A DNA stretch of 64,000 nt from a virus. The stretch lies in IMG/VR virus record IMGVR_UViG_3300029288_000158; one strand, 5' to 3'. This document shows positions 5,019 to 62,825 of this stretch, one piece after another. The notes below the pieces were generated by a model. It did not search any database, was not told where the DNA came from, and was given only the letters and a program-made list of their open reading frames with translations. Position 1 is the first letter of the stretch. The number at the start of each line of letters is the position of its first letter. The position numbers were made by a program, and so were the translations under genes.

Positions 5019-5019
5019 A

Positions 5020-5058
5020 GAAATCTCTTGACTTTGGTTTGGAGTTTCTTTATATTAT
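5020..5058 (+). promoter_or_regulatory. sigma70-like promoter (TTGACT 5028, N17, TATATT 5051) lacking the upstream conserved element
   Basis: Consensus hexamers. SD ACAGGAGG and the ATG at 5077 follow. Confidence 0.6.
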
Positions 5059-5076
5059 CCTACAGGAGGTTCTACA

Positions 5077-9812: not shown

Positions 9813-10487
9813 ATGGCTAAGAAGAATCAAACTGCTGCGACCAAGAACACCAATCCCGAGACTCCCGTTTCGGAAACTCCCGTCGCGACTCCGACCACGT
9901 TCAAGCAGATGGTGAACGTTCCGGGAGTTGGGCTTGTTGAGGTTGATGTTCCTCTTGATGCGGCGATGGAGATTGCTGCGAAGGTGAAGGAAGCTCCCGA
10001 GGCGAAGGCGAAGCGCGATGCTGGCAGGAAGGCGAAGATTGCTGCCGCGCAGAAGGCCAAGCGCGATGCTGAGAAGGCCGCACATGCCAACGATCCGGAA
10101 TGGTTGGCGAAGGAAGCTGACAGGAAGGCGAAGCGCGATGCTCGCCTCGCAGTCATTGAGAAGCGGAAGGTGAATTCTGAGAAGAGGGCTGAACGTGCGA
10201 CGAAGGAGCAGGAAGCGAATGCCGCTCTGCTTGCCGAGTCTGGCTCCTCGCTCCCGCTTGCCCGACTTGTTGAGGCTTCTATCACGAAGCTGTATGAGAA
10301 GGGAATGAAGGGCGAGGATGGTGCGCATCGTGGATGGCTTGTCAAGTTCAGCTACAACAACGTGAAGGGTATCAGCGTCAAGTATTCTCAGCGTCTTTCT
10401 CTTGACGAACGTGGGGTTGGAACACTTGATTCTCTCCACGCCGATGCCAAGAAGATTCTGCTTGACATGATTGCTGACGCGAAGTAA
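9813..10487 (+). CDS. abundant-looking Ala/Lys-rich protein with 4x KAKRDA repeats and a Thr/Pro-rich N-terminus; function unknown
   Basis: Very strong SD AAAAGGAGAGAATACC. GC about 55% against a 35% background. Three promoters upstream and two terminators downstream. Confidence 0.7.
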   Translation: MAKKNQTAATKNTNPETPVSETPVATPTTFKQMVNVPGVGLVEVDVPLDAAMEIAAKVKEAPEAKAKRDAGRKAKIAAAQKAKRDAEKAAHANDPEWLAKEADRKAKRDARLAVIEKRKVNSEKRAERATKEQEANAALLAESGSSLPLARLVEASITKLYEKGMKGEDGAHRGWLVKFSYNNVKGISVKYSQRLSLDERGVGTLDSLHADAKKILLDMIADAK

Positions 10488-10497
10488 GCAATGTTGC

Positions 10498-10540
10498 GGA
10501 GTGGTTTGAAAAATAGCCACTCCACGAAAAGTTCTTTTTC
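10498..10540 (+). terminator. hairpin (ggagtgg/ccactcc), possible first terminator
   Basis: Perfect 7-bp stem. T-run not immediately adjacent. Confidence 0.35.
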
Positions 10541-10607
10541 AATTTGACGGTGGTTCTCAAAAATTAAATAACTCTGGAATCTAACTCGTCAAAATAAAAA
10601 GAGAACT

Positions 10608-10640
10608 AAGCGGAGGACAAAATTCTCCGCTTTTCTTTTA
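10608..10640 (+). terminator. rho-independent terminator
   Basis: agcggag/ctccgct plus a T-run. Confidence 0.6.
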
Positions 10641-10657
10641 CCAACAGCGCCTCTTAA

Positions 10658-10708
10658 TGACCGAAAGAAAATCCAGCTTGACATTCGTTAAATTTGGAGA
10701 TATATTAA
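10658..10708 (+). promoter_or_regulatory. conserved promoter cassette copy (-35 TTGACA 10678, -10 TATATT 10701)
   Basis: CCGAAAGAAAATCCAGCTTGACA. Confidence 0.65.
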
Positions 10709-10727
10709 CCTCAAAGGAGTTACTAAA

Positions 10728-11189
10728 ATGCTGGCTATTTTTCTTGACATTGAAGAGACGGTTATTCATTCTCTTGACAATCCAAAAGAAACAGAATGGG
10801 CAAGAAAGATTTTTGATTTTGTTGAAGGAAAAGAGAACATCTTTCTTTTCTCTTGGGCGTTGTGGACGAATGAAGATGTAGAATCATTCATTTCCACCCC
10901 AACATTTCAATGGATTTGTATGAATGCGAATCAGACAATTCCGACCGAAAAAATCATTTCAAAAGATTCGTTAAGGAATTCGTTCTCTAATATGTTTCGT
11001 TCACTTGACTTGAATGATTTTCGTGATGTTTGTCAGTCAAAAGAAGTTGCGTTTGAATTGTTTGTTAGGTTTGACGAGCGTGTGAAAGAGTTTAACGAAT
11101 TTGTTTTCATTGATGATAGAGTAGAAAATAAAATTGTAAAGATTGGTAATAAAGAAATCTTTTTCGTCAAGGCGCATAGAGAAATGTGA
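10728..11189 (+). CDS. hypothetical protein. N-terminal LAIFLDIEETVIH weakly resembles the DxDxT motif of HAD/NIF-type phosphatases (second Asp replaced by Glu).
   Basis: Track ORF. The motif resemblance is weak. Confidence 0.5.
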   Translation: MLAIFLDIEETVIHSLDNPKETEWARKIFDFVEGKENIFLFSWALWTNEDVESFISTPTFQWICMNANQTIPTEKIISKDSLRNSFSNMFRSLDLNDFRDVCQSKEVAFELFVRFDERVKEFNEFVFIDDRVENKIVKIGNKEIFFVKAHREM

Positions 11190-11200
11190 TTACTAAATCC

Positions 11201-11250
11201 TACCGAAGGAATTCCCAGCTTGACTTTCGAAGGGTAATAGTATATATTAG
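11201..11250 (+). promoter_or_regulatory. conserved promoter cassette copy (-35 11220, -10 TATATT 11243)
   Basis: CCGAAGGAATTCCCAGCTTGACT. Confidence 0.65.
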
Positions 11251-11275
11251 TAGTAACCTTAAAGGAGGTTTCAAA

Positions 11276-12670
11276 ATGAGAAAGATATTTTTGATTGTTC
11301 TTGCTTCGCTTGTTGGTTTTGGTTGTGATTCGGAAAGAAGCTCCACGTCTCCCGAAGCTAACAAGGAAGTTCGCAGTATTACAAATAGACAAATTGTTGT
11401 TAGGAATAAGGTTGTTGTTCCCGCGACAGTTGTTGTGAGAGACACAGATATTGTAAAGAAATCGTCATCGGTTCTGCTTGGAAAGATTATCCAGCAGGAT
11501 ACTAAGGGCTCGGTCGGTGCCGTTGTTTGTTCTGAGAAGATGAACAAGTGTGTAAAGACCAATTCTTCTGGAGTTTATCGACTTGAGAAGGTAACAGTAG
11601 CAGCGAGGAGTTTCTCAGGAAACGATACAATGACAACTCCGGAGAACATTCCTCTCGAAATTTCGTCAGGTGTTATTGTTGACACTGCTTTTGATAGCGG
11701 AACCGTTGTAATTTCTGATACAACAACCTCTATTGATTCAATCATTGCTCCGGATTCTTCAGTAGTTATTGTTGATTCTATCATTGTAACCGATACAATT
11801 CGGAATGTTGATACTATCAAGATTTCTGTAACGATTGATTCTATGGTGCCAACTCCTATTATTGATACCTTGGAAATAATCAACAACGGAACAGTGATTG
11901 GTGAAATCGTAATTGATTCGTGGGGGTGTATTCTTCCTCCAAATTACATTGTTCAGCGAAATATCTCAGCGGTTGATTCGACCTGGGACAATAGTATAGA
12001 TACTGTTGAAGCGGTTTATTTCGTCCGTGGAGATTCTGTAGCAAAGGTTGTTTCTCTTGGAAATGTTGGGAGAAATTACGCGGGGTTTGTTTACACTCTA
12101 TACAACGATTCGTCTTTCAAAAAGGATGATAAGGTGTATAATTTGTTCATCCGAGCAAAGAATAATTTGGGAAGCGTGATTGTAAAGACGGAGGTTGAGA
12201 CGTTTTCAGAACGATATGGAGATATTCCTAATAAGATTTTGAAGACAAAGGTCGGCGTTCCGGAATATAAGATTTCCCCGAATTTCGTCCCTGCGGCGAG
12301 AAATAATGAGAAGTTGAAGAATAGTGTTGTTAAGTATAACAACAAACCAAAGGTCAATTGGATTGGTGATGATGCCATGCCGGGAGTTTTTAAGAACAAC
12401 TCGCGTGAATATGTGGGCTATACAAAGTTTGATTATGATAGCCTCGGTGTGGATTCTGTCTCTTTTAACATCGTAACAGAATCGGATTCTATTAGAGTCC
12501 CGGTAATCTATACCAAGGGTGACACCATCATTCAGGAAACCATTCTAAACACCAAAACCTATTACAAAATGAAACTAAGAGTTGATAAGGAAGTTGGAAT
12601 GTTTGTTATTTCTCCAGTTGATGATGTAGACGCGATAATTTCGGAAGTTAGATTTTATTTCAAGGATTAA
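11276..12670 (+). CDS. large lipoprotein with internally repetitive V/I/D/S/T-rich (beta-sandwich-like) region
   Basis: Signal plus lipobox MRKIFLIVLASLVGFGC. SD AAAGGAGG. Repeats such as VVISDTTTSIDSII, VVIVDSIIVTDTI. Confidence 0.65.
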   Translation: MRKIFLIVLASLVGFGCDSERSSTSPEANKEVRSITNRQIVVRNKVVVPATVVVRDTDIVKKSSSVLLGKIIQQDTKGSVGAVVCSEKMNKCVKTNSSGVYRLEKVTVAARSFSGNDTMTTPENIPLEISSGVIVDTAFDSGTVVISDTTTSIDSIIAPDSSVVIVDSIIVTDTIRNVDTIKISVTIDSMVPTPIIDTLEIINNGTVIGEIVIDSWGCILPPNYIVQRNISAVDSTWDNSIDTVEAVYFVRGDSVAKVVSLGNVGRNYAGFVYTLYNDSSFKKDDKVYNLFIRAKNNLGSVIVKTEVETFSERYGDIPNKILKTKVGVPEYKISPNFVPAARNNEKLKNSVVKYNNKPKVNWIGDDAMPGVFKNNSREYVGYTKFDYDSLGVDSVSFNIVTESDSIRVPVIYTKGDTIIQETILNTKTYYKMKLRVDKEVGMFVISPVDDVDAIISEVRFYFKD

Positions 12671-15406: not shown

Positions 15407-15607
15407 ATGAAACAAATCGTCAAAACAATTTTCGGTTCTCATCTTTACGGAACTTCTACTCCTGAATCCGATACAGATTTCAAAGCTGTTCATATGTATT
15501 CTATTCAGGAAATTCTTCTGAAAAAAGACAAAGATAATATTGATTCAAGCACAAATAAGAAAACTAAGACACTAAATACATGTAGATGTTTCGTAGTTAC
15601 AAGATAA
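15407..15607 (+). pseudogene. N-terminal fragment of a Pol-beta-superfamily nucleotidyltransferase (GS..YG....SDxD motif), apparently truncated by the downstream TnpB element
   Basis: MKQIVKTIFGSHLYGTSTPESDTDFKAV is the classic NTase N-terminal motif. The frame then runs into non-homologous sequence and stops inside the tnpB start region. Confidence 0.45.
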
Positions 15608-16857
15608 GATTAGAGACAAACTCAATCCAAACCTCGGCACTTCACCAGAATTGTCAATCGGCTCGTTACGCTTACAATTGGGCTCTGACTAATCAAATCT
15701 CCGCAACAGAACAAGCTAAAGAACTTGCTAAAACAACAAACACCAAACCCATCTACCCTAAAGTTAGTTCTTTTAGCTGGAGTGCTGAGTGGACAAATTT
15801 AAAAAAGAGCGTTCCTTGGTTGAGAGAAGTTTCAAAATGGCCAGCGCAACAAGCATTCCGACATCTTGAACAAGCATACAAAAGATTTTTCAATAAAGGT
15901 GGTTATCCCAAATTCAAGAAATTCTCCGATGCTACAAGTTATACCGAAGGCTGTGTAAGAGTAGGCTACGACTACATTAAGTTACCAAAGATAGGTAAAG
16001 TCAAACTTTCGAGAAAAGGATGGGCTGTTCAAGAAGAAGTAGAACTGTCTTTAGCAACAATTTCGTTTGACGGAGAACACTGGTTTGTTTCTTTTTACTT
16101 GAAAAATAACAACCAGCCTAAACAACTACCAGATTTAACAAATATACTAGAAGATGAAATTCTTGGAGTAGATTTGGGTATAAAGGATTTGGCTATTTGT
16201 TCCGACGGCGAGGTTGTTCCAAACCCAAAAACCTACAAAAAACATCTGAAAAAGTTAAAAAGATTCCAACGAAAATTATCAAAAAAGAAAAAAGGCTCTA
16301 AGAACAGAGAAAAAGCTAAAAGAAAACTAAGAAGAATTCATAACAAAATTCGGAACATTCGCCTAGACAACATCCACAAAATGACATCAAAAATAGTGAA
16401 ATCACAACCTAAAATGATTGTCCTCGAAACCCTAAGACCAAAGAACATGATGAAAAATCACAAATTAGCACAAAGTATAGCCGACGCATCATTCGGAGAA
16501 ATTGTGAGACAGTTCACCTACAAATGTGAATGGAATGGTGTTCACCTTCTTCGTGCGCATCAGTTCTACCCAAGTTCTCAATTTTGTTCTTCATGTGGTC
16601 ACCAAAACAAAAACTTGAAATTAAAAGATAGAGAGTGGATTTGTTCAGAATGCGGAGCAGCCCACGATAGAGATTTCAACGCCGCTAAAAATTTACAATT
16701 TTACGGCTATTGGCTGAACAGCCAGTCTACCGAGGGTTCCTCGGAAAGTTACGCTTGTGGAGGAGATAGGTTGCAGTTCCTTAAAGAACAGTGCTCTCCA
16801 ATAAAACAAGAAATTAAAGATGGAAAAACAAAGAAACCTTGTTTGAATGTCTAAGAT
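15545..16857 (+). mobile_element. IS200/IS605-family TnpB-only (IS1341-like) insertion; ends approximate
   Basis: tnpB sits between two pieces of an apparent NTase-like gene. No tnpA is present. Confidence 0.5.
15586..16854 (+). CDS. tnpB: TnpB (OrfB) RNA-guided nuclease of the IS200/IS605 family
   Basis: RuvC-I ILGVDLGIKDLAICSDG, RuvC-II MIVLETL, zinc finger CSSCGH...CSECG, RuvC-III HDRDFNAAKNL. N-terminal YKIRL...ARYAYNWAL. Confidence 0.9.
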   Translation: MFRSYKIRLETNSIQTSALHQNCQSARYAYNWALTNQISATEQAKELAKTTNTKPIYPKVSSFSWSAEWTNLKKSVPWLREVSKWPAQQAFRHLEQAYKRFFNKGGYPKFKKFSDATSYTEGCVRVGYDYIKLPKIGKVKLSRKGWAVQEEVELSLATISFDGEHWFVSFYLKNNNQPKQLPDLTNILEDEILGVDLGIKDLAICSDGEVVPNPKTYKKHLKKLKRFQRKLSKKKKGSKNREKAKRKLRRIHNKIRNIRLDNIHKMTSKIVKSQPKMIVLETLRPKNMMKNHKLAQSIADASFGEIVRQFTYKCEWNGVHLLRAHQFYPSSQFCSSCGHQNKNLKLKDREWICSECGAAHDRDFNAAKNLQFYGYWLNSQSTEGSSESYACGGDRLQFLKEQCSPIKQEIKDGKTKKPCLNV

Positions 16858-48557: not shown

Positions 48558-48941
48558 ATGATGAAAAACAAAGAAGGTAATTGCGTCGCTGTAGGAAAGT
48601 TGACAAGTTATGAAGAAAAACATGGTAATGCTCACTATGTTTTGACAATTGATTTGATTAGCGAAACCGAGGAAAGCAAAGACAATTTCGAAGCTTTGGG
48701 TGACCTTGGTTATGCAGATGTTGCTTGTCAATGTATAAAACAAAAAGAACCTCTTGAAATTAGTAACAAAGTAAAACTTGGAAAAATTGAAGATTATCTA
48801 CAGATTATTCTTTCTGATTCGGATGAAAAAAGAAAGAGAGCAAAAACAATCAAAAATAAAACTATGAAAGCTTCTGTAAAAATGTATGCAGAATTCTTTC
48901 ATATCACTGATGGCCGCAAAACCACTAAAAAGGAGAACTAA
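48558..48941 (+). CDS. hypothetical protein
   Basis: Track ORF. Its last codons carry the SD for infC. Confidence 0.5.
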   Translation: MMKNKEGNCVAVGKLTSYEEKHGNAHYVLTIDLISETEESKDNFEALGDLGYADVACQCIKQKEPLEISNKVKLGKIEDYLQIILSDSDEKRKRAKTIKNKTMKASVKMYAEFFHITDGRKTTKKEN

Positions 48942-48942
48942 A

Positions 48943-49455
48943 ATTTCTACTAACCTTGATACTATCCGCGTAAATGACGATATTCGTGTTCGTGAAATCC
49001 GTTTGATTGATGAAAATGGAAATCAGATTGGAATTGTTCCTACAACTTCCGCAAAACAGGAAGCCTCTTCATTGGGTCTTGACCTCGTTGAAATCAATCC
49101 AAATGCTCGTCCTCCTGTTTGTAAGATGATGAACTTTGGAAAATACAAGTTTGAACTAAAAAAGAAAGAAAAGGAAGCTAAGAGTCGTCAGAAGGTTGTT
49201 GAATTGAAGCAAATCAATTTCCACCCAAACACTCAATACCACGACTACACATATCGTCTGGAACAAGCCAAAGGATTCATCAAATCCGGAAACAAGGTTA
49301 AGGCTACTGTAACTTTCCGTGGTCGTGAAATGAATTTCCTTTCAAATGGAAAAGAGATTCTTGATAAGATGACTACTGATTTGAAAGAAGTTGCGACAGT
49401 TGAAGTAAACGAAATGGAAGGCAAACAAATGTTTGTCGTCTTCCGTCCGGTGTGA
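48943..49455 (+). CDS. infC: translation initiation factor IF-3 homolog with a non-canonical ATT start
   Basis: Collinear with bacterial IF3 (IRVREIRLIDENGNQIGIV..., GLDLVEINPNARPPVCKMMNFGKYK, ATVTFRGREM). No in-frame ATG or GTG near the N-terminus. AAGGAGA lies 7 nt before the ATT. Confidence 0.8.
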   Translation: MSTNLDTIRVNDDIRVREIRLIDENGNQIGIVPTTSAKQEASSLGLDLVEINPNARPPVCKMMNFGKYKFELKKKEKEAKSRQKVVELKQINFHPNTQYHDYTYRLEQAKGFIKSGNKVKATVTFRGREMNFLSNGKEILDKMTTDLKEVATVEVNEMEGKQMFVVFRPV

Positions 49456-53104: not shown

Positions 53105-55036
53105 ATGATTCTAAACCAAGCACCAAAACAGAATGTCATTTCTTCTTGTGTTAGTTCTCAGAAGCTTCGTATTTCTTCTGATGAACTCGATCAGGCTATT
53201 CTTGTCGATCTTCAGATTTCCAAACTCTACCGAAACAAAATCCGAGCAGTTGTCCAGGAATACATTTCGAACGCGCGAGATGCTAACGTAGAAGCTGGAA
53301 AGAAAGATTGTCAAATTTCTATTCACGTTCCAAAGCCTTCCGAACCTTGGTTTTCGGTTTCGGATGTTGGTCTTGGAATGAGTCCGGAAATTGTTGATAA
53401 GTATCTTTGTCAAACTGGGGCAAGTTCCAAGAGAAACACTAACGATTCTATTGGTTCTTTTGGACTTGGCGCTAAGTGTGGATTCGCATACATCAAGGAG
53501 CGTAAGACTCAGTTTAACATTACTACGGTTTCTGATGGAATAAAGCATTTCTACATTTGCCACTATGATGAATTTGGATTTCCTAATGTTTCTCTTTTGT
53601 CTTCCGAACCAAGCAACGATATTGGGACAGAAGTTAAAATTCCTGTAGATAATGGAGATGTTGGTAGTTTTACCCATGAACTTCAGAGGATTCTTTCTTT
53701 TTGGGTAGACAAATATCCTTTTGAAACTTCAAGTAATATTGATTTGAAAATTCCAGAAGTCTTTTATGATTGTGATGGTTATACAATTTATAAAGGTCGT
53801 TTTGGATTTCAATCAAATTATGGAAATGATTTTATTTCTATCGCAGGGATTCCTTACGACCGATGTTCAACATTTGATTCGTTCACAATCGTAGGAAAGA
53901 TGCCGATTGGTGTCCTTGATATTGTTCCTTCCCGTGAATTTTTGGAAGAAACCAAAAATAACGACGAACATATCAATCCTATCTTTGATTCGGCTAAAAA
54001 GTATATCATTGAACATTTCCAAAAGCTTGTTGATGGAATGAAGAATGAATTGGAAGTTTGGTTGGCGTTTCAGTCAAAGAAGATTCCAAACGAACTTTGT
54101 AAGCATTTGAAATATAAGAATGAACCGATTGATTTTGGTTCTATTTGTAAAAGGCTACCTGGATTTTATTCAAGTCAAATTGATTTTGCTTCGGAAATTA
54201 AATTCATTCACAACAATTCATGTCTAAGGTTTGAAAATGACCAGAGATATCGTATTCGTAGCATTCTCAATACAAATAATTACATTGTCTACTATGATGC
54301 TGATGAACTTAAGGGGTGGAGAAAGAATCAAAACTATTTTGAAACTTGGAATTCCTTCTCCAAGAATCTTCGTGAACAGATTCTACAAAAAGCTATTGTT
54401 TATTCTACTCTTAAGACTCCTAGAGCTAAGAGAGATAAGACAGACAAACCGTCTTGCTGGAAACTTGAATCGGAACGTTGGGTCGCACAATTTGAAGATA
54501 TTTCAACTATTTCTGGAACTTGGTTTGTTGGGGCTAATCTCAAACCAGTTGATGAAAAAGTCATGAAGATTTTCTCAAAGGTTAAAGCCGATTGGAGCAG
54601 TCAAATTGTTTCGGGTGATATTTACATGATTCCTAAGCGAAATGTAAAACTTGCCGAAGCTAACAAAGACCTTCGGGATATTTTTGAAGTCGCCAAAGAA
54701 AACATCTTGAAAGAAGAATCGATCAAGAAGATTTATTCCTTCTACATTAAGACGACGTTTGGAGACTCGGCTATTCATCTTTGGAGGAACCCTGGAGAAA
54801 TTAAAGATGAAGTTCTCAAGGAAGTTCTGAACAAAGGACTAATTAAAGACCACGGTTGGCGACAAGATTTCCAACACGGTTCAAATCACGAGTTTTATGC
54901 GAAGTTGTTCGGAAAGAAATTCATGACGCCTGACATTGAACACGTTCTTGAGAAATATGATATTTGTTCCAGGTTTACAAACGCACATGAAAACAACATG
55001 ATGGAACTTGTTAAATTTGTAGGAGATAGAAAATGA
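53105..55036 (+). CDS. Hsp90/HtpG-like GHKL ATPase
   Basis: LYRNKIRAVVQEYISNARDA (N box), VSDVGLGMS (G1), LCQTGASSK, IGSFGLGAKCGFAY (G2). Length 643 aa matches HtpG. Confidence 0.75.
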   Translation: MILNQAPKQNVISSCVSSQKLRISSDELDQAILVDLQISKLYRNKIRAVVQEYISNARDANVEAGKKDCQISIHVPKPSEPWFSVSDVGLGMSPEIVDKYLCQTGASSKRNTNDSIGSFGLGAKCGFAYIKERKTQFNITTVSDGIKHFYICHYDEFGFPNVSLLSSEPSNDIGTEVKIPVDNGDVGSFTHELQRILSFWVDKYPFETSSNIDLKIPEVFYDCDGYTIYKGRFGFQSNYGNDFISIAGIPYDRCSTFDSFTIVGKMPIGVLDIVPSREFLEETKNNDEHINPIFDSAKKYIIEHFQKLVDGMKNELEVWLAFQSKKIPNELCKHLKYKNEPIDFGSICKRLPGFYSSQIDFASEIKFIHNNSCLRFENDQRYRIRSILNTNNYIVYYDADELKGWRKNQNYFETWNSFSKNLREQILQKAIVYSTLKTPRAKRDKTDKPSCWKLESERWVAQFEDISTISGTWFVGANLKPVDEKVMKIFSKVKADWSSQIVSGDIYMIPKRNVKLAEANKDLRDIFEVAKENILKEESIKKIYSFYIKTTFGDSAIHLWRNPGEIKDEVLKEVLNKGLIKDHGWRQDFQHGSNHEFYAKLFGKKFMTPDIEHVLEKYDICSRFTNAHENNMMELVKFVGDRK

Positions 55037-55316: not shown

Positions 55317-56117
55317 ATGAACTACATCCTAAACGAAAATTCAATCTCATTTGTAGTTAATTCTACTCCATTTTCTATTCCCCGAACGGATGACAAGTTC
55401 CATTCTGCTATCGGAATCATCTTCGATCCAGTCTTCAACGAGCAGCAGAAGTATGAAAATCTACAGAAGCTAATTGACGACAAGTTCTATGTTCTCAGTT
55501 ATTTAAATCTTTGTCCAGTCATTGCTTCTGGTAAGTCATATGGTTCTGTTAAGTTTTCAAACATCCGCAGATTCATTCCAAATCTTTCGGAGCATTCTAT
55601 TCCACACGAAATATTTGTCAATCTTTTAAACAATCTTAGTTGTGTTGAAAATGGTTCGGACATTCTAACATTCATTTTCAACAACAAGATTCTTATTTCT
55701 AACGACGGCAACCTATACATATACAAAGGAATCAGAGAAGATTATACAGATTGTTTTTCTGGAACAGTTCTTAACAAAGTTGGACTGACAAATGAAATGC
55801 CAAGGGAACAAGTAACAATTTATCATGGTGGCCCCGGCTTTTACTTTGGAACCTATTCTCGGGCTGTGTCAATGTCAAGAGGTCATATCGTCATTTGTAA
55901 GATTGACATTAAGGACATTGTTTGGGTTGATGAAAACGAAATGAAGGTATGTAAGTATAAAATTATCAAAGAAGAAACCAAGGAACTGCCCTTTGGAACC
56001 TACGATTTTGCCGAGGTTGTTCCGGAGGAGCCTTCACCCGTACCGGAGCCAAAGAAGCCTTTTAAGGCACTCGCTGGGCTTCGTAGGATGGGTCTGTGGC
56101 GAAGGAAGAAGGCTTGA
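55317..56117 (+). CDS. hypothetical protein with Pro-rich basic C-terminal tail
   Basis: Track ORF. Confidence 0.5.
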   Translation: MNYILNENSISFVVNSTPFSIPRTDDKFHSAIGIIFDPVFNEQQKYENLQKLIDDKFYVLSYLNLCPVIASGKSYGSVKFSNIRRFIPNLSEHSIPHEIFVNLLNNLSCVENGSDILTFIFNNKILISNDGNLYIYKGIREDYTDCFSGTVLNKVGLTNEMPREQVTIYHGGPGFYFGTYSRAVSMSRGHIVICKIDIKDIVWVDENEMKVCKYKIIKEETKELPFGTYDFAEVVPEEPSPVPEPKKPFKALAGLRRMGLWRRKKA

Positions 56118-56446
56118 GCTTCGCGACCTTTTTCCTCTTGGCCGCTATCGTAGGAATAAACATTTCTCTTTTTATTATTGATAAAATAAGTAACGAGAAG
56201 AGAAATTTTCAATATTTGCTTTATTATTCTTTCGTTGGTTTCTTGATGACTCCAATGTTTATTTTATTTTTCCCTGTATCTTCTTGGCCGTTGTTTCTTT
56301 ATGTTTGCGTCTGGTTTCATTTCTTTTATATTTCATTCTTGATGATGTTTGAAGATTATTTTCTCAGATATTTTAATCCTTTTATTTGGTTTTATGTTGG
56401 AATGGTTATCTATTCAACATTCAATTTGGCTCGTAGTAGTTTATGA
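56096..56446 (+). CDS. polytopic membrane protein
   Basis: Track ORF with about 4 hydrophobic helices. Confidence 0.45.
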   Translation: MAKEEGLSFATFFLLAAIVGINISLFIIDKISNEKRNFQYLLYYSFVGFLMTPMFILFFPVSSWPLFLYVCVWFHFFYISFLMMFEDYFLRYFNPFIWFYVGMVIYSTFNLARSSL

Positions 56447-56637
56447 AAATGGTTTTTTGTTTGAGAATAAATTATAAGATGGGGTGGTTTTTTAACAACC
56501 CCCAATATAAAAGAATACACTTTTCGGAGTGGTATTCGTTGAAATCTATAAAGAAATATAGTATTGATGATGATTCGGAATATTACAAAACGACTCTTTA
56601 TAGGTTCCTTGAAAGAATGATGAAATATGAAAATTAA
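56443..56637 (+). CDS. small-protein superfamily member (...RFLERMMKYEN)
   Basis: Array member. Confidence 0.5.
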   Translation: MKMVFCLRINYKMGWFFNNPQYKRIHFSEWYSLKSIKKYSIDDDSEYYKTTLYRFLERMMKYEN

Positions 56638-56842
56638 GCTGGCCATATCCGAATTTATTGATAGAGAAGGTTACGAAATAGATATAAGATTTGGTTCGGT
56701 TGCTAATCATGTGACTTCCGAGATTTGTAATCGCGGGTATAATGTCAGTTTTTGGTTTGACTCTTTGCCGAATATGAATAGGTTTGAAAAGTTTAATTCG
56801 GATAAAAATTACAAAATAGTGTTGTTTGATTTGAGGCGATGA
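56627..56842 (+). CDS. small-protein superfamily member (MKIKLAISEF...)
   Basis: Stop of the previous gene overlaps ATGAAAATTAAG. Confidence 0.5.
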   Translation: MKIKLAISEFIDREGYEIDIRFGSVANHVTSEICNRGYNVSFWFDSLPNMNRFEKFNSDKNYKIVLFDLRR

Positions 56843-56843
56843 T

Positions 56844-57014
56844 ATGAAAATTAAAATAAATATAAGAAAAGAAAACATTTATTTTTCGCAGTTCGTTTGG
56901 ACCTTTATAAACAAAAATAAAAACAAACCAGATACAACTAAAATGTTCTTTACTGACTATTCCTGCTTTATTACAAATTCAAACGCAAATGTTAAAAGAT
57001 GGAAGACCGTATGA
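56844..57014 (+). CDS. small-protein superfamily member (MKIKINIRK...), 56 aa
   Basis: ATGAAAATTAAA start immediately after the upstream stop. Confidence 0.4.
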   Translation: MKIKINIRKENIYFSQFVWTFINKNKNKPDTTKMFFTDYSCFITNSNANVKRWKTV

Positions 57015-57148
57015 AAATTAGAACGTGGACAGCTCATGTTAATTGGAAATTATTTCAAATAAATGTTATTGATACAGGAATAAATGTATATGAATTTGAT
57101 ACGAGACAATTTAGGAATAGAGAACAAACATGTTTTGTTTTATGTTAA
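57011..57148 (+). CDS. small-protein superfamily member (MKIRTWTAH...), 45 aa
   Basis: ATGA-coupled. Confidence 0.35.
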   Translation: MKIRTWTAHVNWKLFQINVIDTGINVYEFDTRQFRNREQTCFVLC

Positions 57149-57185
57149 AAAATGGAAACGAAAAAAGATTTAGGAAATATTTCCA

Positions 57186-57404
57186 ATGAAGATTAAATTG
57201 AATTTTCGCGGAACAAATGAATACGATTATGAGATATCGGTTCCTGGATGTTATACAGTAATATTAAATTTTGTGTGGACAGTTTCAAAAAATATCCGGA
57301 ATAATGAAAACAACTTTTATAGGTTATCAGATTATGAAAAACGGCTTATCAATTTTTACACCAGAATGTTGAAATATGAATCTAAAAACAAAAATATATA
57401 TTAA
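57186..57404 (+). CDS. small-protein superfamily member (MKIKLNF...FYTRMLKYES...)
   Basis: Track ORF. Confidence 0.5.
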   Translation: MKIKLNFRGTNEYDYEISVPGCYTVILNFVWTVSKNIRNNENNFYRLSDYEKRLINFYTRMLKYESKNKNIY

Positions 57405-57567
57405 CATATGTAACGGGTTCACATTTAATTTTTCGGAATATGATTTTCAATATAAAAAAGTTAGTTTGTTTGAAGGTTATGTATTTCAGATAAAAAACAA
57501 AACTATTTATTTCACGAAAAGAAATTTCAACAAACACCGAATTGAAAAATATGAAAATAAAAACTAA
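57376..57567 (+). CDS. small-protein superfamily member (...HRIEKYENKN)
   Basis: Track ORF. Confidence 0.45.
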   Translation: MNLKTKIYINICNGFTFNFSEYDFQYKKVSLFEGYVFQIKNKTIYFTKRNFNKHRIEKYENKN

Positions 57568-57766
57568 AATTTTTCACGACACTTTGAATTATACAGTTAG
57601 GGCCATTTTTGATTTTAACCCATCCAAAGACACATATTCTTTATTCACTGCATTTCCAAATTGTTACATTTATCCTGAAACTCCGGTAAACAAATCTCGA
57701 TTAGAAAAGGCATTTGGTCCTAGTTCTTGTTCCTACAACATCCAACCGAAGAAAAATCCAGCTTGA
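57551..57766 (+). CDS. small-protein superfamily member (MKIKTKIF...); its stop is the TGA inside the next promoter's -35
   Basis: Ends ...PKKNPA*, as does 50004-50204. Confidence 0.45.
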   Translation: MKIKTKIFHDTLNYTVRAIFDFNPSKDTYSLFTAFPNCYIYPETPVNKSRLEKAFGPSSCSYNIQPKKNPA

Positions 57767-57794
57767 CTTTGATTTAATCCTGCCGTATATTAAA
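57745..57794 (+). promoter_or_regulatory. conserved promoter cassette copy (-35 57764, -10 TATATT 57787)
   Basis: CCGAAGAAAAATCCAGCTTGACT. Confidence 0.65.
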
Positions 57795-57814
57795 GACATG
57801 TCAAGGAGCAGTTC

Positions 57815-58432
57815 ATGGTAACCAAAATTATTTTCATTTTGTCTTTCTTGTTTTCTGGCAAGTCTTCGTTTTCTAAACTTGGATATTTTCCGTTTACTAA
57901 CGCGGTTGATTTCGGAACGCCAGCAACAAGCGTAAGTTATGATTTTGATACTCGCGGAACAGAGTATGTTACGGAAAATTTGGGATGCGATAAACAAGCA
58001 ATTACTACATATGGTAAGAATGCGTATGGAAACAAAATTGAATATGTTTATTATTTCTACAATGGCTTCCATGTAAATAAGAATGATACGCTATCGGGAT
58101 TGTATCTTGTAACGGTTTCTCATTTCGGAAACAAAGACTTGACATCTGATGATAATGTTGTTGAAGTTTTTGTTGAAGAATATGCTGCATCTTTCGGTAT
58201 TCCAATTGTAAAGAAACATGGAAGAATTCAATCAGACCGAAGGGTTTTGGATTTTGTTAACTCACCAAAATCAACAATTCTTTTGATGGATGGAACTTGG
58301 TGGATTTTTGACAAGAATAAGAACGCAGTTGCTCTTAGATTTCCAACAAGAGAACATATCAAAATGGGACATGTGAGTCAAATCATTTACAAAAAGAAAT
58401 ATAATATTGATTGGACTTTTTGTGAAGATTGA
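57815..58432 (+). CDS. secreted or membrane-anchored hypothetical protein (N-terminal hydrophobic signal)
   Basis: SD AAGGAGCAGTTCATGG. Confidence 0.55.
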   Translation: MVTKIIFILSFLFSGKSSFSKLGYFPFTNAVDFGTPATSVSYDFDTRGTEYVTENLGCDKQAITTYGKNAYGNKIEYVYYFYNGFHVNKNDTLSGLYLVTVSHFGNKDLTSDDNVVEVFVEEYAASFGIPIVKKHGRIQSDRRVLDFVNSPKSTILLMDGTWWIFDKNKNAVALRFPTREHIKMGHVSQIIYKKKYNIDWTFCED

Positions 58433-58628
58433 GTTACGTGTTAGAACTGCTTGTTATGGTGCAAGTGGTTGGTTTACCAGTTTTTTAAATGAGCAAAAAT
58501 CATATGCTTTGTATTCAATTGATTGGAAAGAATCCACAAAAACAGCGATTGAGCTTAGATTAGAACCCGAACTGTCAAAACTTTGGAGAAACACATTTCT
58601 AAAACGAATGCTAAAAAGATACGGATGA
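58407..58628 (+). CDS. small-protein superfamily member (...TFLKRMLKRYG)
   Basis: Track ORF. Confidence 0.45.
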   Translation: MIGLFVKIELRVRTACYGASGWFTSFLNEQKSYALYSIDWKESTKTAIELRLEPELSKLWRNTFLKRMLKRYG

Positions 58629-58641
58629 AAAGGAAAAACAA

Positions 58642-59475
58642 ATGAATACATATGTAATTCATCATAACGATTCTGATGGTTATGGTGCTGGTCTGGCTGC
58701 TTATACGAAGTTTGGAAATGAAGCGCGGTATCTTCCAATTGATTATGGTTGGAAGTTTCCCGAACTCGAACCAAATTCAAATGTTTATATCTTGGATTTT
58801 TCTATTCTGAGAAATGAACTTGACGAACTTGTAGCAAAAATGAATTTTGTTCTTGTTCTTGACCATCATAAGAGCGCAGAAGAACAATTGAAGAATCATC
58901 CTAATGCTATTTTTGACATGAATCGTTCTGGAGCTGGAATTGCTTGGGATTATTTTCATTCTAACGTTACAAGGCCAGATTTCATTAACTACATTGAAGA
59001 TGCGGATTTGTGGCGATTCTCTCTACCAAATTCAAAAGATGTTAGGAATTCTATCTTTCTAATTGATTTGAACATTGAAGAATATACCAAAGAATTATTC
59101 AAACCAATTTCTGAAAGAGTGCTTGAAGGCAAAACAATAACAAAATATATGAATTCTCTTTTGAAAATTGGAAGCGAATATAAACATATTATTCAAATCG
59201 ATGAATTCAAAATGGCGGTTGTTAATAGCTGTTTGATTCAATCGGATTTTGGAAACTCACTTTTTAACAAACACTGCAACCATGGCGAAGCTGATTTTGC
59301 AGGAGTGTATTTCAATCTTGGTGACGGAACAGTGAAATTTTCGTGCCGTTCTGTTGGAGATTTCGATGTTTCTTCTATTTGTAAACGGTTTGGAGGAGGT
59401 GGACACAAGAACGCTGCCGGATTCCAAATTCCCGAAGAAAAATTTAACTTCAAAAAGATTTCTTCGGATAAATAA
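58642..59475 (+). CDS. DHH/DHHA1-family phosphoesterase (NrnA/nanoRNase-like)
   Basis: DHH motifs HHNDSDGYGAG, LDHH, and DHHA1 GGGH near the C-terminus. Confidence 0.75.
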   Translation: MNTYVIHHNDSDGYGAGLAAYTKFGNEARYLPIDYGWKFPELEPNSNVYILDFSILRNELDELVAKMNFVLVLDHHKSAEEQLKNHPNAIFDMNRSGAGIAWDYFHSNVTRPDFINYIEDADLWRFSLPNSKDVRNSIFLIDLNIEEYTKELFKPISERVLEGKTITKYMNSLLKIGSEYKHIIQIDEFKMAVVNSCLIQSDFGNSLFNKHCNHGEADFAGVYFNLGDGTVKFSCRSVGDFDVSSICKRFGGGGHKNAAGFQIPEEKFNFKKISSDK

Positions 59476-59479
59476 TAAA

Positions 59480-59647
59480 ATGGAAGATTGGTGTAATTGT
59501 TATAATTGCTCTCAAGAAAATAGGAAAAAGAAAACAACAAACAAATGTTGTAAGGAATGTAACTATGAAAAGGAAAAAGAGAAACGACAAAATACTGAAA
59601 ATGAGAATTCCTCTCCCAACACAGAGGAATCAAGCATTCAAAAGTAA
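59480..59647 (+). CDS. 55-aa Cys-rich protein (CNCYNC...CCKEC)
   Basis: First ATG of the track frame. Confidence 0.4.
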   Translation: MEDWCNCYNCSQENRKKKTTNKCCKECNYEKEKEKRQNTENENSSPNTEESSIQK

Positions 59648-59719
59648 GAAAGATTACAACCGGAATGACAAATCCTGGCGCAACAGCCGGGATTTCTTGT
59701 TTTTATCATTTCTTTTTCC

Positions 59720-59748
59720 TTGACTTGTAAAAAATAAAACCGTAAATT
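59720..59748 (+). promoter_or_regulatory. class-II promoter (TTGACT-TGTAAAAAATAAAACCG-TAAATT)
   Basis: Spacer nearly identical to the promoter at 39943. Confidence 0.55.
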
Positions 59749-59787
59749 AAGTAGAGCGGAAGCCTGACCTATTTTTCCAAGGCAAAG

Positions 59788-59976
59788 ATGAAGATTAAAT
59801 TTTCTTATTGTGTTCATTCTAGAGGATGGTATTTTATAAATGAAAATCATTCAGCGTATATAATGTATGCTGAATGGTGTGGTGTCAAACGTTGTTTAAT
59901 GGATTCTGTTAAATATGATGACTACAATTTCCGTAAACGCTTCTTAGAAAGAATGATTAAACGATATGAAAATTAA
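59788..59976 (+). CDS. small-protein superfamily member (MKIKFSY...RFLERMIKRYEN)
   Basis: Track ORF. Confidence 0.55.
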   Translation: MKIKFSYCVHSRGWYFINENHSAYIMYAEWCGVKRCLMDSVKYDDYNFRKRFLERMIKRYEN

Positions 59977-60130
59977 ATTACAGTTACAATTGTATCCAAA
60001 CATAGATGGTTTTCAGATAATTCCTGGAGAAATATGTGTTTTGTTAAACTCTAATATTATGTTTAAAGGATACAAAAGTTCAAACGCAAAATATCATAAT
60101 TTTGACAGGCGAATTTCTAAGTATCATTAA
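59966..60130 (+). CDS. small-protein superfamily member (MKIKLQLQ...), 54 aa
   Basis: Start embedded in the previous gene's RYEN* end. Confidence 0.4.
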   Translation: MKIKLQLQLYPNIDGFQIIPGEICVLLNSNIMFKGYKSSNAKYHNFDRRISKYH

Positions 60131-60140
60131 GGAGAACAAA

Positions 60141-60449
60141 ATGGGAAGAAAAAGAATTCATCCAGTCAAAGAACGCACTTTTCCCAAGGTTAAACGGAAG
60201 GGTCGCTTTGAGGAGCCTAAGATTGAAAAAATTGAAAATGAACTATTAACCTATATAGTTTATCTAAAAGGAACTGGACCAAAAGACCCAAACAAACCCC
60301 GACAATTCAAAGCCAAAAATTTGTTGGAAGTTATCAAGTTTTCGGCAGAGTCGTTTGGAAAAGACAGACTGATAGAAATTCATGATTACCGAGACAATTT
60401 GATTTGGGGAAGAAACACAGGAATCAATAAAGAGAATTATGTAAAATGA
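60141..60449 (+). CDS. basic hypothetical protein
   Basis: AAGGAGAACAAAATGG. Confidence 0.55.
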   Translation: MGRKRIHPVKERTFPKVKRKGRFEEPKIEKIENELLTYIVYLKGTGPKDPNKPRQFKAKNLLEVIKFSAESFGKDRLIEIHDYRDNLIWGRNTGINKENYVK

Positions 60450-60637
60450 GGATTACATTTACGCTAATCACAGGATATACCGGAAAAAATGAATGGTTGT
60501 TTGTTGGTGGTTTTTGGTATTCTTCGTGGAAAAGTTTGAAAACTTGTTTGGATGATTCCCCTAACGAATGGTTAGGTAAATGGGATAAAAATCGTCGACA
60601 TTTCTTAGAAAGAATGATTAAACGCTATGAAAATTAA
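60446..60637 (+). CDS. small-protein superfamily member (...HFLERMIKRYEN)
   Basis: Track ORF. Confidence 0.55.
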   Translation: MRITFTLITGYTGKNEWLFVGGFWYSSWKSLKTCLDDSPNEWLGKWDKNRRHFLERMIKRYEN

Positions 60638-60731
60638 ACTAATAGTAAACTCATACGAAATTTACAACCCTGCATATCCGTTTGTTAACTGGAATGATCA
60701 TATACGACAAGAGATTAAAAAGTGGAATTGA
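60627..60731 (+). CDS. small-protein superfamily member (MKIKLIVN...), 34 aa
   Basis: Conserved junction RYEN*/MKIKL. Confidence 0.3.
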   Translation: MKIKLIVNSYEIYNPAYPFVNWNDHIRQEIKKWN

Positions 60732-60936
60732 TTACGTGAAACTTTCACAAATTTACAGAAAATTCATTTTGCTCAAATCTTTTCACCGTCGTTTCTCAAA
60801 ATGGAACTGAAATGAAAACTTTTATAAATTTATTTTTATCTTTTCTCGGGTATTCTTTACTTGCTGTTGGAATAGTCGCTTTCGTTTTTAATATTTTGAA
60901 AATTGGAACTTTGTTCTGATTTTTCTTTTAACCTTC

Positions 60937-60975
60937 GCCTATTAAAACCGAAGGAAATTCCAGCTTCACAACCAA
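60937..60975 (+). promoter_or_regulatory. degenerate copy of the promoter cassette (CCGAAGGAAATTCCAGCTTCACA; -35 destroyed) at the end of the + strand gene block
   Basis: Upstream element intact but TTGACT has become TTCACA. No + strand gene follows. Confidence 0.4.
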
Positions 60976-61032
60976 ACAAAAATAAAGCCCAGGTTTGTCA
61001 CCCAGGCTTCTCTTCAAATAACAAACCAGTAT

Positions 61033-61572
61033 TTATTTAATCCCAATTCTCTCCAATTCCATCCTCACAGAACCAACCAAATCTACAATTGGAAAAACGC
61101 CCTTTCGCTCATAGACATTAACCCGTCCCTTACACTTATCTCGTCCGTGTGCGTTTTTATCAGCACACCCAATATAGAACCTAACACGAGAACTCTTGCT
61201 ATATCCATCAGAATCAAGAATAACAATCTCAAACAGATTCTTACTCTGAAGAAATGTAATATTTTCTTGTCCAAATTGTTTATAAAGAACACTCAGGATG
61301 ATTCCGAGTTTTACCTTTACATCAGAATATTCCGCACAAGTAAACGTCTTGTCTTGAGGTCGGCCCCTACCAGATTTCTTTTCCTTAAGTTCCTTCATTG
61401 CCTTTGGAGTCGTCTTCTTTTTCTCAGTTCCGATAATAGGCGTTCCGTCATAATCAGTATCGAGATTTGCCGGTTTGATAGTTGGCGAAGAATCGCAATC
61501 GGCTTCACTAGTCCCCATGGACGACAGTAGGCGGTCAATTTCCAAATCAATATCAGAGAAAGAGTCGTTCAT
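61033..61572 (-). CDS. hypothetical protein (minus strand)
   Basis: 179-aa track ORF, part of the convergent minus-strand block. Confidence 0.5.
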   Translation of the reverse strand: MNDSFSDIDLEIDRLLSSMGTSEADCDSSPTIKPANLDTDYDGTPIIGTEKKKTTPKAMKELKEKKSGRGRPQDKTFTCAEYSDVKVKLGIILSVLYKQFGQENITFLQSKNLFEIVILDSDGYSKSSRVRFYIGCADKNAHGRDKCKGRVNVYERKGVFPIVDLVGSVRMELERIGIK

Positions 61573-61673
61573 TCGATAGGTTCCTTTTTGGGATTGTTTG
61601 GGATTACCAGAAAATGTAATAAACCCTCAACAATCTGTCAAGGGTAGTTTTACAATTATTTTTGGTTGGAGAA

Positions 61674-62825
61674 TCAGAAAAAATAGGAGCTTGAAATGTC
61701 TGGACCGTTGTGATGAATGACCCGATTGAACTTCATCAAATTTTGAAGTTTGTCAAGCAGTTCAAACGCAGGAACATTAAGAAGTTTGCCATTTTCAACA
61801 ATTGGACAAATCAAATCCATCTGGTCAATACATGAAATTGCCAGCGAAGGAATGATTTTAACACAACTTGTCAGAATGTCTTTTTCAATGCTTTCTTTCA
61901 ACAAGTCAAGATTGATTGGAGCAAAACGAATGCTTCCCTGGAAATCATTTGGAATGTTTGTTTCATCAACAATCTTTTCGAAAATCTTTCCTTCAACCTC
62001 AAACGGAAGAGGCCCAGCACCGTGACGAGTCAAATACGTTCGGGTGCAGTAAAAAACTTCCATTTCATCAACACCGATATCTTTTAGAATTCTAGAAGCG
62101 TTAACGGAGCCAGTCTTGCTTCTTGTGACATGCGGGAAGAAATAATGGTCTTCATCCAAAAGAAGGCCTTGATTTCCTTCAAACAACAACGTTTCGTATT
62201 TCGTAATTTCGTTTGTCTTACGGAAATGAGTTGTCTGAACCATCTGAACGCATTCATTAACAAACTTTTCAATAATTCCTTCGTCGTAGAAATGAGAAGG
62301 AATTTCAAGTCCAATTTGTTCAAAACGCGGAACAAAATATTCATCCCGAATGTGGCGAATCTTGTTAGCAAATCCAACCGAGGCAATGTTACTAACAGTT
62401 GTCTTGTGGGGAGTTTCACAACGAATCACAGTTTCGTTAATACCCATTCCACAAGACCCGTGACGAGAAGCACCACGAGAAATCTCCAATTCCTGATTAA
62501 CCATCATGTCATATGGAAGAGTCAGACGGGAATTAGGATGAATGAAGACTTCTGTTTTACGAGAAATTTTGTTGTTCTCTTTACAATAAACAATCGGATT
62601 GGTGATGAAATATTTGGACAAATATGTATCCGACCCCAACCACGTTCCAGAAGAAATGTGGCGGAATGCGTGACGTTTTCCATTGTATTCAACCGTATGA
62701 GAAGTCTGAGCACCACCCGAAGACCGAACGGTAATAGAATTCTTATGTTGAGACGCAAGGAAAGCGGTAGTAATCCCTTTACCCTCGTCGCCTAGATTAG
62801 CTCCAACAATTCCAACAGCTTTCAT
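61674..62825 (-). CDS. adenylosuccinate synthetase family protein (PurA/PurZ-like)
   Basis: GANLGDEGKGI (GDEGKGK P-loop), GGAQTSHTV, GSCGMGINE, LLFEGNQGLLLDEDHYFFPHVT, TRHGAGPLP. All collinear with PurA. Confidence 0.8.
   Translation of the reverse strand: MKAVGIVGANLGDEGKGITTAFLASQHKNSITVRSSGGAQTSHTVEYNGKRHAFRHISSGTWLGSDTYLSKYFITNPIVYCKENNKISRKTEVFIHPNSRLTLPYDMMVNQELEISRGASRHGSCGMGINETVIRCETPHKTTVSNIASVGFANKIRHIRDEYFVPRFEQIGLEIPSHFYDEGIIEKFVNECVQMVQTTHFRKTNEITKYETLLFEGNQGLLLDEDHYFFPHVTRSKTGSVNASRILKDIGVDEMEVFYCTRTYLTRHGAGPLPFEVEGKIFEKIVDETNIPNDFQGSIRFAPINLDLLKESIEKDILTSCVKIIPSLAISCIDQMDLICPIVENGKLLNVPAFELLDKLQNLMKFNRVIHHNGPDISSSYFF

Follow-up and report, generated by a model that had tools for sequence, protein, structure and literature searches.

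A compact DHH/DHHA1 phosphoesterase gene of a jumbo phage: family placement, genomic context and candidate role in nucleotide recycling

Among stand-alone DHH-DHHA1 proteins, the NrnB family has been defined by COG2404 membership, a DHH domain and a GGGH motif, and comprises three bacterial clades (Myers et al., 2025; PMC12709177). Every NrnB assayed degrades RNA 3'-5'; a C-terminal extension of more than 100 amino acids identifies the enzymes that act on long RNA (clade A), and NrnB enzymes with tails shorter than 50 amino acids favour 2-4-mers (PMC12709177). The NrnB enzymes of Bacillus licheniformis, B. thuringiensis and Helicobacter pylori leave c-di-AMP uncleaved (PMC12709177). B. subtilis NrnB acts on a DNA 5-mer at the same speed as on RNA and is inactive on c-di-AMP and pAp (Myers et al., 2023; PMC10570053). 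The authors of the NrnB work stress that the substrate preference of stand-alone DHH-DHHA1 proteins is not predictable from annotation (PMC10570053). For NrnA, pAp phosphatase activity has been reported (PMC9779919).

Here we analyze a gene of this superfamily in a 64,000-nt stretch of viral DNA (IMG/VR record IMGVR_UViG_3300029288_000158; 'the window'). An earlier note, made from the letters of the window, had read positions 58642-59475 as a gene for a stand-alone DHH/DHHA1 phosphoesterase, and this reading holds: the exact open reading frame, Pfam, phrog_4771 and an AlphaFold2 model all agree with it. The gene proves to be a divergent new member of a known viral family that is annotated in more than 100 phage genomes.

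An intact gene for a two-domain protein

The ORF runs from ATG to stop and encodes 277 amino acids (Table 1). Based on the ORF, the motif set, the homologues and the confident model, the gene is real and intact, far beyond chance. Promoter-like sites around it were at background level in a consensus scan (16 vs. 11 ± 4 expected). The downstream hairpin likely marks the end of the transcription unit that holds the DHH gene, on evidence that is weak because the terminator scan was itself at chance level (2 sites vs. 1.3 expected). The 55-residue Cys-rich ORF in between is probably co-transcribed with the DHH gene, but is probably not a functional partner of the DHH protein, since it is not conserved in relatives. 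It had no match in PADLOC.

Table 1. Positions of the DHH gene, its parts and selected surrounding features in the window
Feature	Positions	Strand	Basis or remark
rIIA	53105-55036		in the window
rIIB-like protein	55317-56117		in the window
Shine-Dalgarno-like AAGGA, 7 nt 5' of ATG	58630-58634	+	read from sequence
DHH/DHHA1 phosphoesterase gene, complete	58642-59475	+	ORF list (stop codon included), phrog_4771, Pfam, AlphaFold2, identical protein P0001
DHH catalytic domain, residues 1-112	58642-58977	+	alignment invariants, model secondary structure
Helical linker, residues 113-178	58978-59175	+	model secondary structure; motif IV at start, long helix 156-178
DHHA1 substrate-binding domain, residues 179-277	59176-59472	+	Pfam DHHA1 (4.3e-10), invariants, alignment to 9r7o and other solved DHHA1 domains
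Cys-rich 55-aa ORF, start 5 nt past the DHH stop	59480-59647	+	gene call, sequence
Terminator-like GC-rich hairpin and T-run	59670-59705	+	consensus scan, sequence
Adenylosuccinate-synthetase homologue	61674-62825	-	opposite strand to the DHH gene, about 2 kb downstream of it

The three DHH motifs that had been listed for the protein are all present in the translation (HHNDSDGYGAG, residues 7-17; LDHH, 73-76; GGGH, 252-255), and motifs II and IV are found as well. Within the DHH domain, motif I provides H8, D10 and D12, motif II D52, and motif III D74-H75-H76, after which comes a conserved R95-S96-G97. Motif IV (D120 and D122, in 'EDADLWRF') aligns with 'VDIWD' of the solved H. pylori protein 6mtz and 'LDTKSF' of a GdpP-type enzyme. 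The DHHA1 domain contributes S234-x-R236-S237, D242 and G251-GGGH255-x-x-A-A-G260, in which an extra glycine (G251) directly precedes GGGH. In an alignment of 60 family sequences, D12, G13, D52, D74, H75, H76, S96, G97, D122, R236, D242, G252, G253, H255 and G260 are invariant; the stretch G252-G253-G254-H255 is invariant or nearly so, and D120 is kept in 58 of the 60 relatives. Position 10 of motif I is Asp in 26 of them and Cys in 33. By analogy with the structures of NrnA, GdpP and RecJ, H8, D10, D12, D52, D74-H75-H76 and D122 are putative metal ligands, and the motifs and the model together indicate that the protein is probably an active phosphoesterase.

Pfam DHHA1 (PF02272) matched with 40.4 bits (cut-off, 25.9). 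Pfam DHH (PF01368) scored 27.5 bits, marginally under its gathering cut-off of 28.1, and is listed in the precomputed Pfam record of the identical protein P0001. Structure prediction, which the earlier note had proposed as a check, gave a confident two-domain AlphaFold2 model (pLDDT 96.6, pTM 0.86) with an N-terminal α/β DHH domain, a helical linker and a C-terminal DHHA1 domain; the two α/β domains and the linker superpose on solved members of the superfamily. The protein has no further domain, given the median family length of 278 residues against 277 here. The proposal that it lacks extra regulatory domains is upheld by the ORF, Pfam, phrog_4771, the alignment and the model alike. Only 22 residues follow GGGH (family median, 21), so that the clade A extension of more than 100 amino acids is absent and a preference for short substrates is predicted, as in clades B and C. 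Such a preference for short oligonucleotides would hold if the protein behaves like its nearest characterised relatives, and we treat it as only a lead.

Placement within the DHH superfamily

Residues 3-269 matched positions 19-289 of the 363-position profile of phrog_4771, 'DHH phosphoesterase' (E 8.4e-68, 230 bits). In contrast, the models for NrnA (NCBIfam NF053633; 17.9 bits vs. a cut-off of 350, residues 218-267 only), RecJ (TIGR00644; 22.2 vs. 396.9 bits) and the GdpP-like PRK14538 (24.8 vs. 707 bits) gave only weak C-terminal matches, all far under their cut-offs. The N-terminal transmembrane helices, PAS domain and degenerate GGDEF domain of GdpP-type proteins are absent, as motif I begins at residue 8.

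The best phmmer match in the PDB was Borrelia DhhP (9r7o; E 4.8e-10), over about 52 residues around GGGH only, and all other PDB matches had E ≥ 0.003. A family profile raised the scores of the PDB matches (9r7o, E 1.2e-14) and left their coverage unchanged. When structures were compared with Foldseek, the top match was 6mtz, an uncharacterised protein of H. pylori (E 1.3e-15), followed by DhhP, Staphylococcus aureus NrnA/Pde2, Rv2837c, TM1595 and GdpP. Motif I is almost N-terminal, a hallmark of the family, in both 6mtz ('YHLSHIDLDGY') and the phage protein ('VIHHNDSDGY'). We infer that 6mtz is the H. pylori NrnB that was assayed, an identity that the papers do not state.

Identity to the nearest characterised enzymes is about 15-22%, and the protein is, by sequence, about equally distant from all solved members. 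Many of its relatives carry the JGI label COG2404, 'oligoribonuclease NrnB/cAMP/cGMP phosphodiesterase (DHH superfamily)', including P0002 (72% identical), P0019 (56%) and P0040 (44%); for the query itself the assignment is indirect. The protein is thus a member of a distinct and mostly viral clade, which automatic annotation groups with COG2404 (NrnB type). Because identity to 6mtz is only about 17-18%, we suggest that it lies outside the characterised NrnB clades A, B and C. The label 'NrnA-like', given to it in the earlier note, is not accurate, since the protein scores far under the NrnA cut-off, its relatives are named COG2404, and its top structural match is 6mtz. NrnA orthology can be rejected on the NCBIfam score.

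Phage setting, distribution and gene neighbourhoods

The window is of phage origin. An identical protein (P0001) is encoded on a 305,169-bp metagenomic contig (ENA ERZ27247363:k141_806084), and the DHH gene is flanked by rIIA and rIIB, a T4-type RNA ligase and homing endonucleases. The window also encodes a DNA methyltransferase, a radical-SAM protein, a TnpB-type transposase, a Clp-like ATPase and a homologue of translation initiation factor IF3, and members of a small paralogous ORF family occur both before and after the DHH gene. A megablast search with positions 56000-62000 found no match among 50,697 phage records. The region is an accessory or early-type part of a T4-like jumbo phage genome, and the DHH gene is an ordinary accessory gene within it.

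The adenylosuccinate-synthetase homologue downstream matches phrog_1211, which is labelled PurZ-like (PurZ being the enzyme of 2-aminoadenine genomes). Its P-loop, GANLGDEGKG, retains an Asp at the position of Asp13 in E. coli PurA. This position is 99% conserved in PurA and is Ser instead in 147 of the 147 phage PurZ proteins studied (PMC12884076). With the Asp kept and cellular PurA as the best PDB matches, the homologue is of the PurA type, and for the same reasons we rejected a link to the Z-genome (2-aminoadenine) pathway; two papers on gene association in that pathway (one of them PMC12884076) do not mention DHH. The best reading of the synthetase homologue is a further gene of purine-nucleotide metabolism near the DHH gene.

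A search of 5.8 billion proteins returned 3264 homologues of the DHH protein at E ≤ 1e-5, the closest of which (53-72% identical) come from metagenomes only. By tblastn, homologues occur in 111 deposited phage genomes, all at less than 60% identity: in the Caulobacter phiCbK group, in H20-like phages of Vibrio anguillarum (about 53 kb), and in jumbo phages of Pseudomonas, Serratia, Ralstonia, Brevundimonas and Erwinia. Their annotations vary between 'DHH phosphoesterase', 'oligoribonuclease A' and 'single-stranded-DNA-specific exonuclease'. The family is present in at least 488 IMG/VR loci or contigs, and at least 583 bacterial species genomes encode relatives. In BFVD, an equally compact fold appears in giant eukaryotic viruses (TM 0.7-0.82), namely Klosneuvirus (30% identity, TM 0.81), Hokovirus, Marseillevirus, Lausannevirus and Pithovirus.

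We clustered the ORFs around the DHH gene in 84 viral loci and confirmed the recurrent ones with Pfam. In 11 loci the gene directly upstream encodes thymidine kinase, and in 14 the gene directly downstream encodes dCMP deaminase; thymidylate synthase recurs in 5 loci, Pol III alpha in 12 and Pol I in 6. Because these raw counts are inflated by relatedness, the loci were dereplicated to 34 DHH clades at 50% identity, and the 131 ORFs lying at most two genes away from the DHH gene were scanned. The only recurrent enzymatic neighbours were then dCMP deaminase (4 clades), thymidine kinase (2) and adenylosuccinate synthetase (1), and no defence or anti-defence family was found among the 131 ORFs. 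Most viral loci have only hypothetical genes around the DHH gene. On the three closest large contigs, genes for dCMP deaminase, NT5C, DenV, RNA ligases, a metallophosphoesterase and HNH proteins are nearby. A conserved partner gene was considered and rejected: the small downstream ORF of the window has no homology to those of three close relatives, and the commonest neighbour cluster occurs in at most 14 of the 84 loci.

Bacterial homologues have settings of their own. The gene order is conserved in ten genomes of Patescibacteria: SpoU rRNA methylase, SAM-dependent RNA methyltransferase, DHH, TsaD and class I aminoacyl-tRNA synthetase. This is a housekeeping RNA-metabolism context as expected for an RNA-turnover enzyme in reduced genomes. 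In Rhodocyclales the homologue lies near ThrRS. In Pseudomonas a C5 DNA methylase accompanies it, and the two are probably carried by a mobile element.

Candidate functions and comparison with known systems

The most economical reading is that the DHH protein is a metal-dependent nano-oligonucleotidase, which degrades very short nucleic-acid fragments for nucleotide recycling; we regard this as an even call. Its substrate, metal (probably Mn2+) and physiological role are put forward here by inference, and its polarity would be 3'-5' if it is NrnB-like, whereas NrnA and RecJ act 5'-3'. In such an enzyme, the DHH domain (H8, D10, D12, D52, D74/H75/H76 and D122) would hold two divalent cations and thereby activate a water molecule, and the DHHA1 domain (R236, S237 and GGGH 252-255) would bind a short substrate through its phosphate and base. 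With the helical linker acting as a flexible joint, both domains could clamp a 2-5-nt piece of RNA or DNA, from which nucleoside monophosphates would be released. Other nucleases would break host RNA and DNA, and the DHH enzyme would clear the limit products that those cannot finish. The resulting NMPs and dNMPs could pass to phage enzymes of nucleotide metabolism, for example to the PurA homologue encoded 2 kb from the DHH gene or, in other phages, to thymidine kinase, dCMP deaminase and thymidylate synthase. The build-up of nanoRNAs, which can prime transcription aberrantly, would be prevented at the same time.

Several observations support recycling. The motifs for catalysis and for substrate binding are complete and do not vary across relatives, the two-domain model is confident, and NrnB-type relatives degrade short RNA 3'-5', which by analogy suits a protein with a 22-residue tail. 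Nucleotide-metabolism genes are neighbours in viral loci, a PurA homologue lies 2 kb off in the window, and the Patescibacteria homologues sit in a housekeeping RNA-metabolism order in 10 genomes. The presence of the family in giant eukaryotic viruses is in line with a general nucleic-acid function in large DNA viruses. Other points count against recycling: even the nearest characterised enzymes share only about 15-22% of residues with the protein, the neighbour association is modest (4 and 2 of 34 clades) with no conserved partner gene, and the best PDB sequence match, DhhP, is by description a c-di-AMP phosphodiesterase, albeit with about 52 residues matched. Moreover, many hosts already own Orn or NrnA, and recycling gives no reason for a phage's own copy beside these host enzymes.

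An unlikely alternative is that the protein is an anti-defence phosphodiesterase, which would hydrolyse host immune second messengers or their linear intermediates and so turn off effector activation. Its targets could be the cyclic di- and trinucleotides of CBASS, or cA3, cA4, cA6 or SAM-AMP of type III CRISPR. We keep this alternative because DHH/DHHA1 enzymes include hydrolases of c-di-AMP, cA4 and SAM-AMP. A prediction of this kind was made in 2021 by Iyer, Anantharaman, Krishnan, Burroughs and Aravind. In it, jumbo-phage DHH phosphodiesterases were predicted to act against the signals of SMODS and type III CRISPR (Iyer et al., 2021; PMC7824862, section 3.4.8). The earlier note, which took such roles to have been assigned so far to other folds, was therefore right for experimentally proven phage enzymes and had missed this published DHH prediction. 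We found neither an experimental follow-up of the prediction nor any experimental report on a phage DHH enzyme in our literature searches. At the locus itself, the DHH protein has no PADLOC match (E ≤ 0.01), and no known anti-defence gene recurs beside the DHH gene in the 34 clades. The COG2404/NrnB enzymes that have been assayed are inactive on c-di-AMP (PMC12709177; PMC10570053), and the SAM-AMP hydrolase NrN is merely 9% identical to the DHH protein. Furthermore, members of the family are found in giant eukaryotic viruses and in Patescibacteria housekeeping operons, settings in which the target is not a bacterial immune signal. An anti-signalling role is thus somewhat disfavoured and has no positive support in the present data. 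Of the two roles offered in the earlier note, nucleotide scavenging is the better supported; the one against CBASS, Pycsar, type III CRISPR or Thoeris finds no support in PADLOC, the neighbours, the NrnB assays or the distribution of the family.

A more general form of the proposal, that the viral phrog_4771 DHH/DHHA1 enzymes are broad-spectrum destroyers of host nucleotide immune signals, is doubtful. Candidate targets would be linear or cyclic oligoadenylates, cGAMP-type dinucleotides and SAM-AMP. If it were true, the Asp-to-Cys switch in motif I of about half of the family might reflect a change of substrate or metal, and a DHH-fold class would join Acb1, Apyc1 and AcrIII-1 among the viral signal nucleases.

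It is similarly improbable that the protein is a minimal RecJ-like ssDNA exonuclease, which would take part in recombination, repair or replication of the phage, for example through resection of 5' ssDNA tails or flap removal. Some other small-molecule phosphohydrolase (a pAp phosphatase, a cAMP/cGMP phosphodiesterase, or a polyphosphate or pyrophosphate hydrolase) is very unlikely: 'cAMP/cGMP phosphodiesterase' stands in the COG2404 name, a methanogen PAP phosphatase (8a8k) and an 'exopolyphosphatase-related' protein (4py9) are among the structural neighbours, and NrnA has reported activity on pAp (PMC9779919), but B. subtilis NrnB lacks pAp phosphatase activity (PMC10570053), the pyrophosphatases and exopolyphosphatases of the superfamily carry DHHA2 rather than the DHHA1 found here, and no sulfur-assimilation or polyphosphate genes are nearby.

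The gene will not surprise a specialist, and the family is large, compact, confidently folded and tractable. It bears on whether the last step of nucleic-acid recycling is encoded by large DNA viruses themselves, on the use of a DHH enzyme by Patescibacteria as a housekeeping nanoRNase, and on the published anti-CBASS/anti-CRISPR prediction.

Compared with known systems, the protein is closest in type to the other members of phrog_4771. Those of the Caulobacter phages phiCbK/CcrRogue (gp062), Ralstonia phage RP12, Pseudomonas phage PaBG and Vibrio phage H20 have an equal length class, the same motifs and the same compact two-domain fold, and the phrog also takes in the DHH phosphohydrolases of Klosneuvirus, Marseillevirus and Lausannevirus (TM up to 0.82); however, identity to the deposited phage proteins is merely 24-32%. 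Like NrnB of B. subtilis and H. pylori (6mtz, from H. pylori G27), it is a stand-alone DHH-DHHA1 protein with GGGH, and it is NrnB-like in having motif I ('H-x-D-x-D-G-Y') at the extreme N-terminus and in its best structural match. Its short C-terminal tail resembles NrnB clades B and C, which favour short RNAs. In length it differs from NrnB, with 277 residues vs. 355 (6mtz) to about 400. With the NrnA-like enzymes (B. subtilis NrnA, Mycobacterium tuberculosis CnpB/Rv2837c, TM1595, Pde2 and DhhP) it has the superfamily, the stand-alone architecture and GGGH in common. Unlike RecJ, or the core of archaeal RecJ-Cdc45, it has no OB-fold or extra domains and is less than half the size. Finally, the phage nucleases Acb1, Apyc1 and AcrIII-1, which destroy immune signals, and the host-side enzymes MAD and NrN are all phosphodiesterases that act on nucleotides, as is predicted for the DHH protein, and two of them, MAD of Sulfolobus (which degrades cA4) and NrN (SAM-AMP), have the DHH/DHHA1 fold in common with it.

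Small genes around the DHH gene and the border of their module

The DHH gene lies among five small paralogous ORFs (see table) encoding proteins of 62–73 aa that are 27–38% identical, with 8 invariant positions and a common C-terminal 'FLERMIKRYEN'. The start of the next small ORF, 'ATGAAAATTAAA' (MKIK...), is often overlapped by the stop region of the preceding one, and the five have the look of a tandem family of genes whose translation is coupled. A Cys-rich ORF directly behind the DHH gene contains seven cysteines (CNCYNC ... CCKEC) and a Lys/Glu-rich tail, and may encode a small zinc-binding protein; no conserved counterpart adjoins the DHH gene in relatives. Further downstream, at ~60700–61050, gene orientation changes from + to −, so that transcription converges there. 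The cumulative GC skew also reaches its maximum at this switch (3.73 at 60 kb) and falls afterwards. Thus, ~60700–61050 marks the border of two transcription modules.

Accompanying genes of the window

Features of the window (L001, locus of the identical DHH protein on a 305-kb metagenomic contig)
Feature	Position	Strand	Remarks
IS605 OrfB/TnpB-type transposase	15586–16854	+	
Clp-type AAA+ 'ATP-dependent protease' ATPase, 808 aa	29742–32168	+	phrog_4871, E 1e-258
Translation initiation factor IF3 homologue, phage-encoded	48886–49455 (L001 269–814)	+	Pfam IF3_N and IF3_C both present
Separate ORF, 93 aa	55033–55314 (L001 6392–6673)	+	between rIIA and rIIB-like gene
rIIB-like protein, 266 aa	55317–56117	+	matches rIIB profile 818–1047 of 1055 (C-terminal part only)
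Paralogous small ORFs (n = 5)	56443–56637, 57186–57404, 58407–58628, 59788–59976, 60446–60637	all +	both sides of DHH gene
Cys-rich ORF, 55 aa	59480–59647	+	5 nt past DHH stop codon, upstream of terminator-like hairpin
Adenylosuccinate-synthetase homologue	61674–62825	−	match to PHROG labelled PurZ type (2-aminoadenine pathway)

The adenylosuccinate-synthetase homologue retains the catalytic Asp of GDEGKG, whereas Ser replaces this residue in 147 of 147 phage PurZ sequences (PMC12884076). Its product is therefore of the PurA type, and the PurZ-type PHROG label is misleading for it. We read the gene as an auxiliary gene of purine synthesis that gives no evidence for a 2-aminoadenine (Z) genome.

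GC content peaks in the window at the Clp-type ATPase (0.44 vs. ~0.34), and a second GC-rich patch spans 10001–12000 (GC 0.42); both stretches may be recent acquisitions from a host. A TnpB-type transposase is also found on a 285-kb contig (L005 6033–7325), just upstream of a 59%-identical DHH relative, and together with the copy in the window this indicates that these jumbo phages carry mobile TnpB elements. The rIIB of the window, as read from its ORFs, appears to be either shortened or split.

Variation and distribution of the DHH family

Residue 10 of the window protein is the leading Asp of motif I (DxD). In a 60-sequence alignment of the family (A1), this site is Cys in 33/60 sequences, giving 'H-x-N-C-x-D-G', and Asp in 26/60, including the clade of the window protein. 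DHH enzymes seldom carry Cys where a metal ligand is expected, and this substitution could point to a different metal or to redox sensitivity.

In Patescibacteria, ten genomes (L119, L124, L128, L130, L132, L135, L139, L142, L150 and L166) share the order SpoU rRNA methylase, SAM-dependent RNA methyltransferase, DHH homologue (at ~5001–5800 in each), TsaD, class I aminoacyl-tRNA synthetase, PrsW and HSP20. This conserved order suggests that the housekeeping nanoRNase of these reduced genomes comes from the family. Compact DHH/DHHA1 proteins of this family also occur in giant viruses of eukaryotes (BFVD matches; TM 0.7–0.82, 21–30% identity), including Klosneuvirus, Hokovirus, Marseillevirus, Lausannevirus, Pithovirus and an environmental Megaviridae sequence. 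By these matches, the DHH/DHHA1 family is common to jumbo phages and Nucleocytoviricota.
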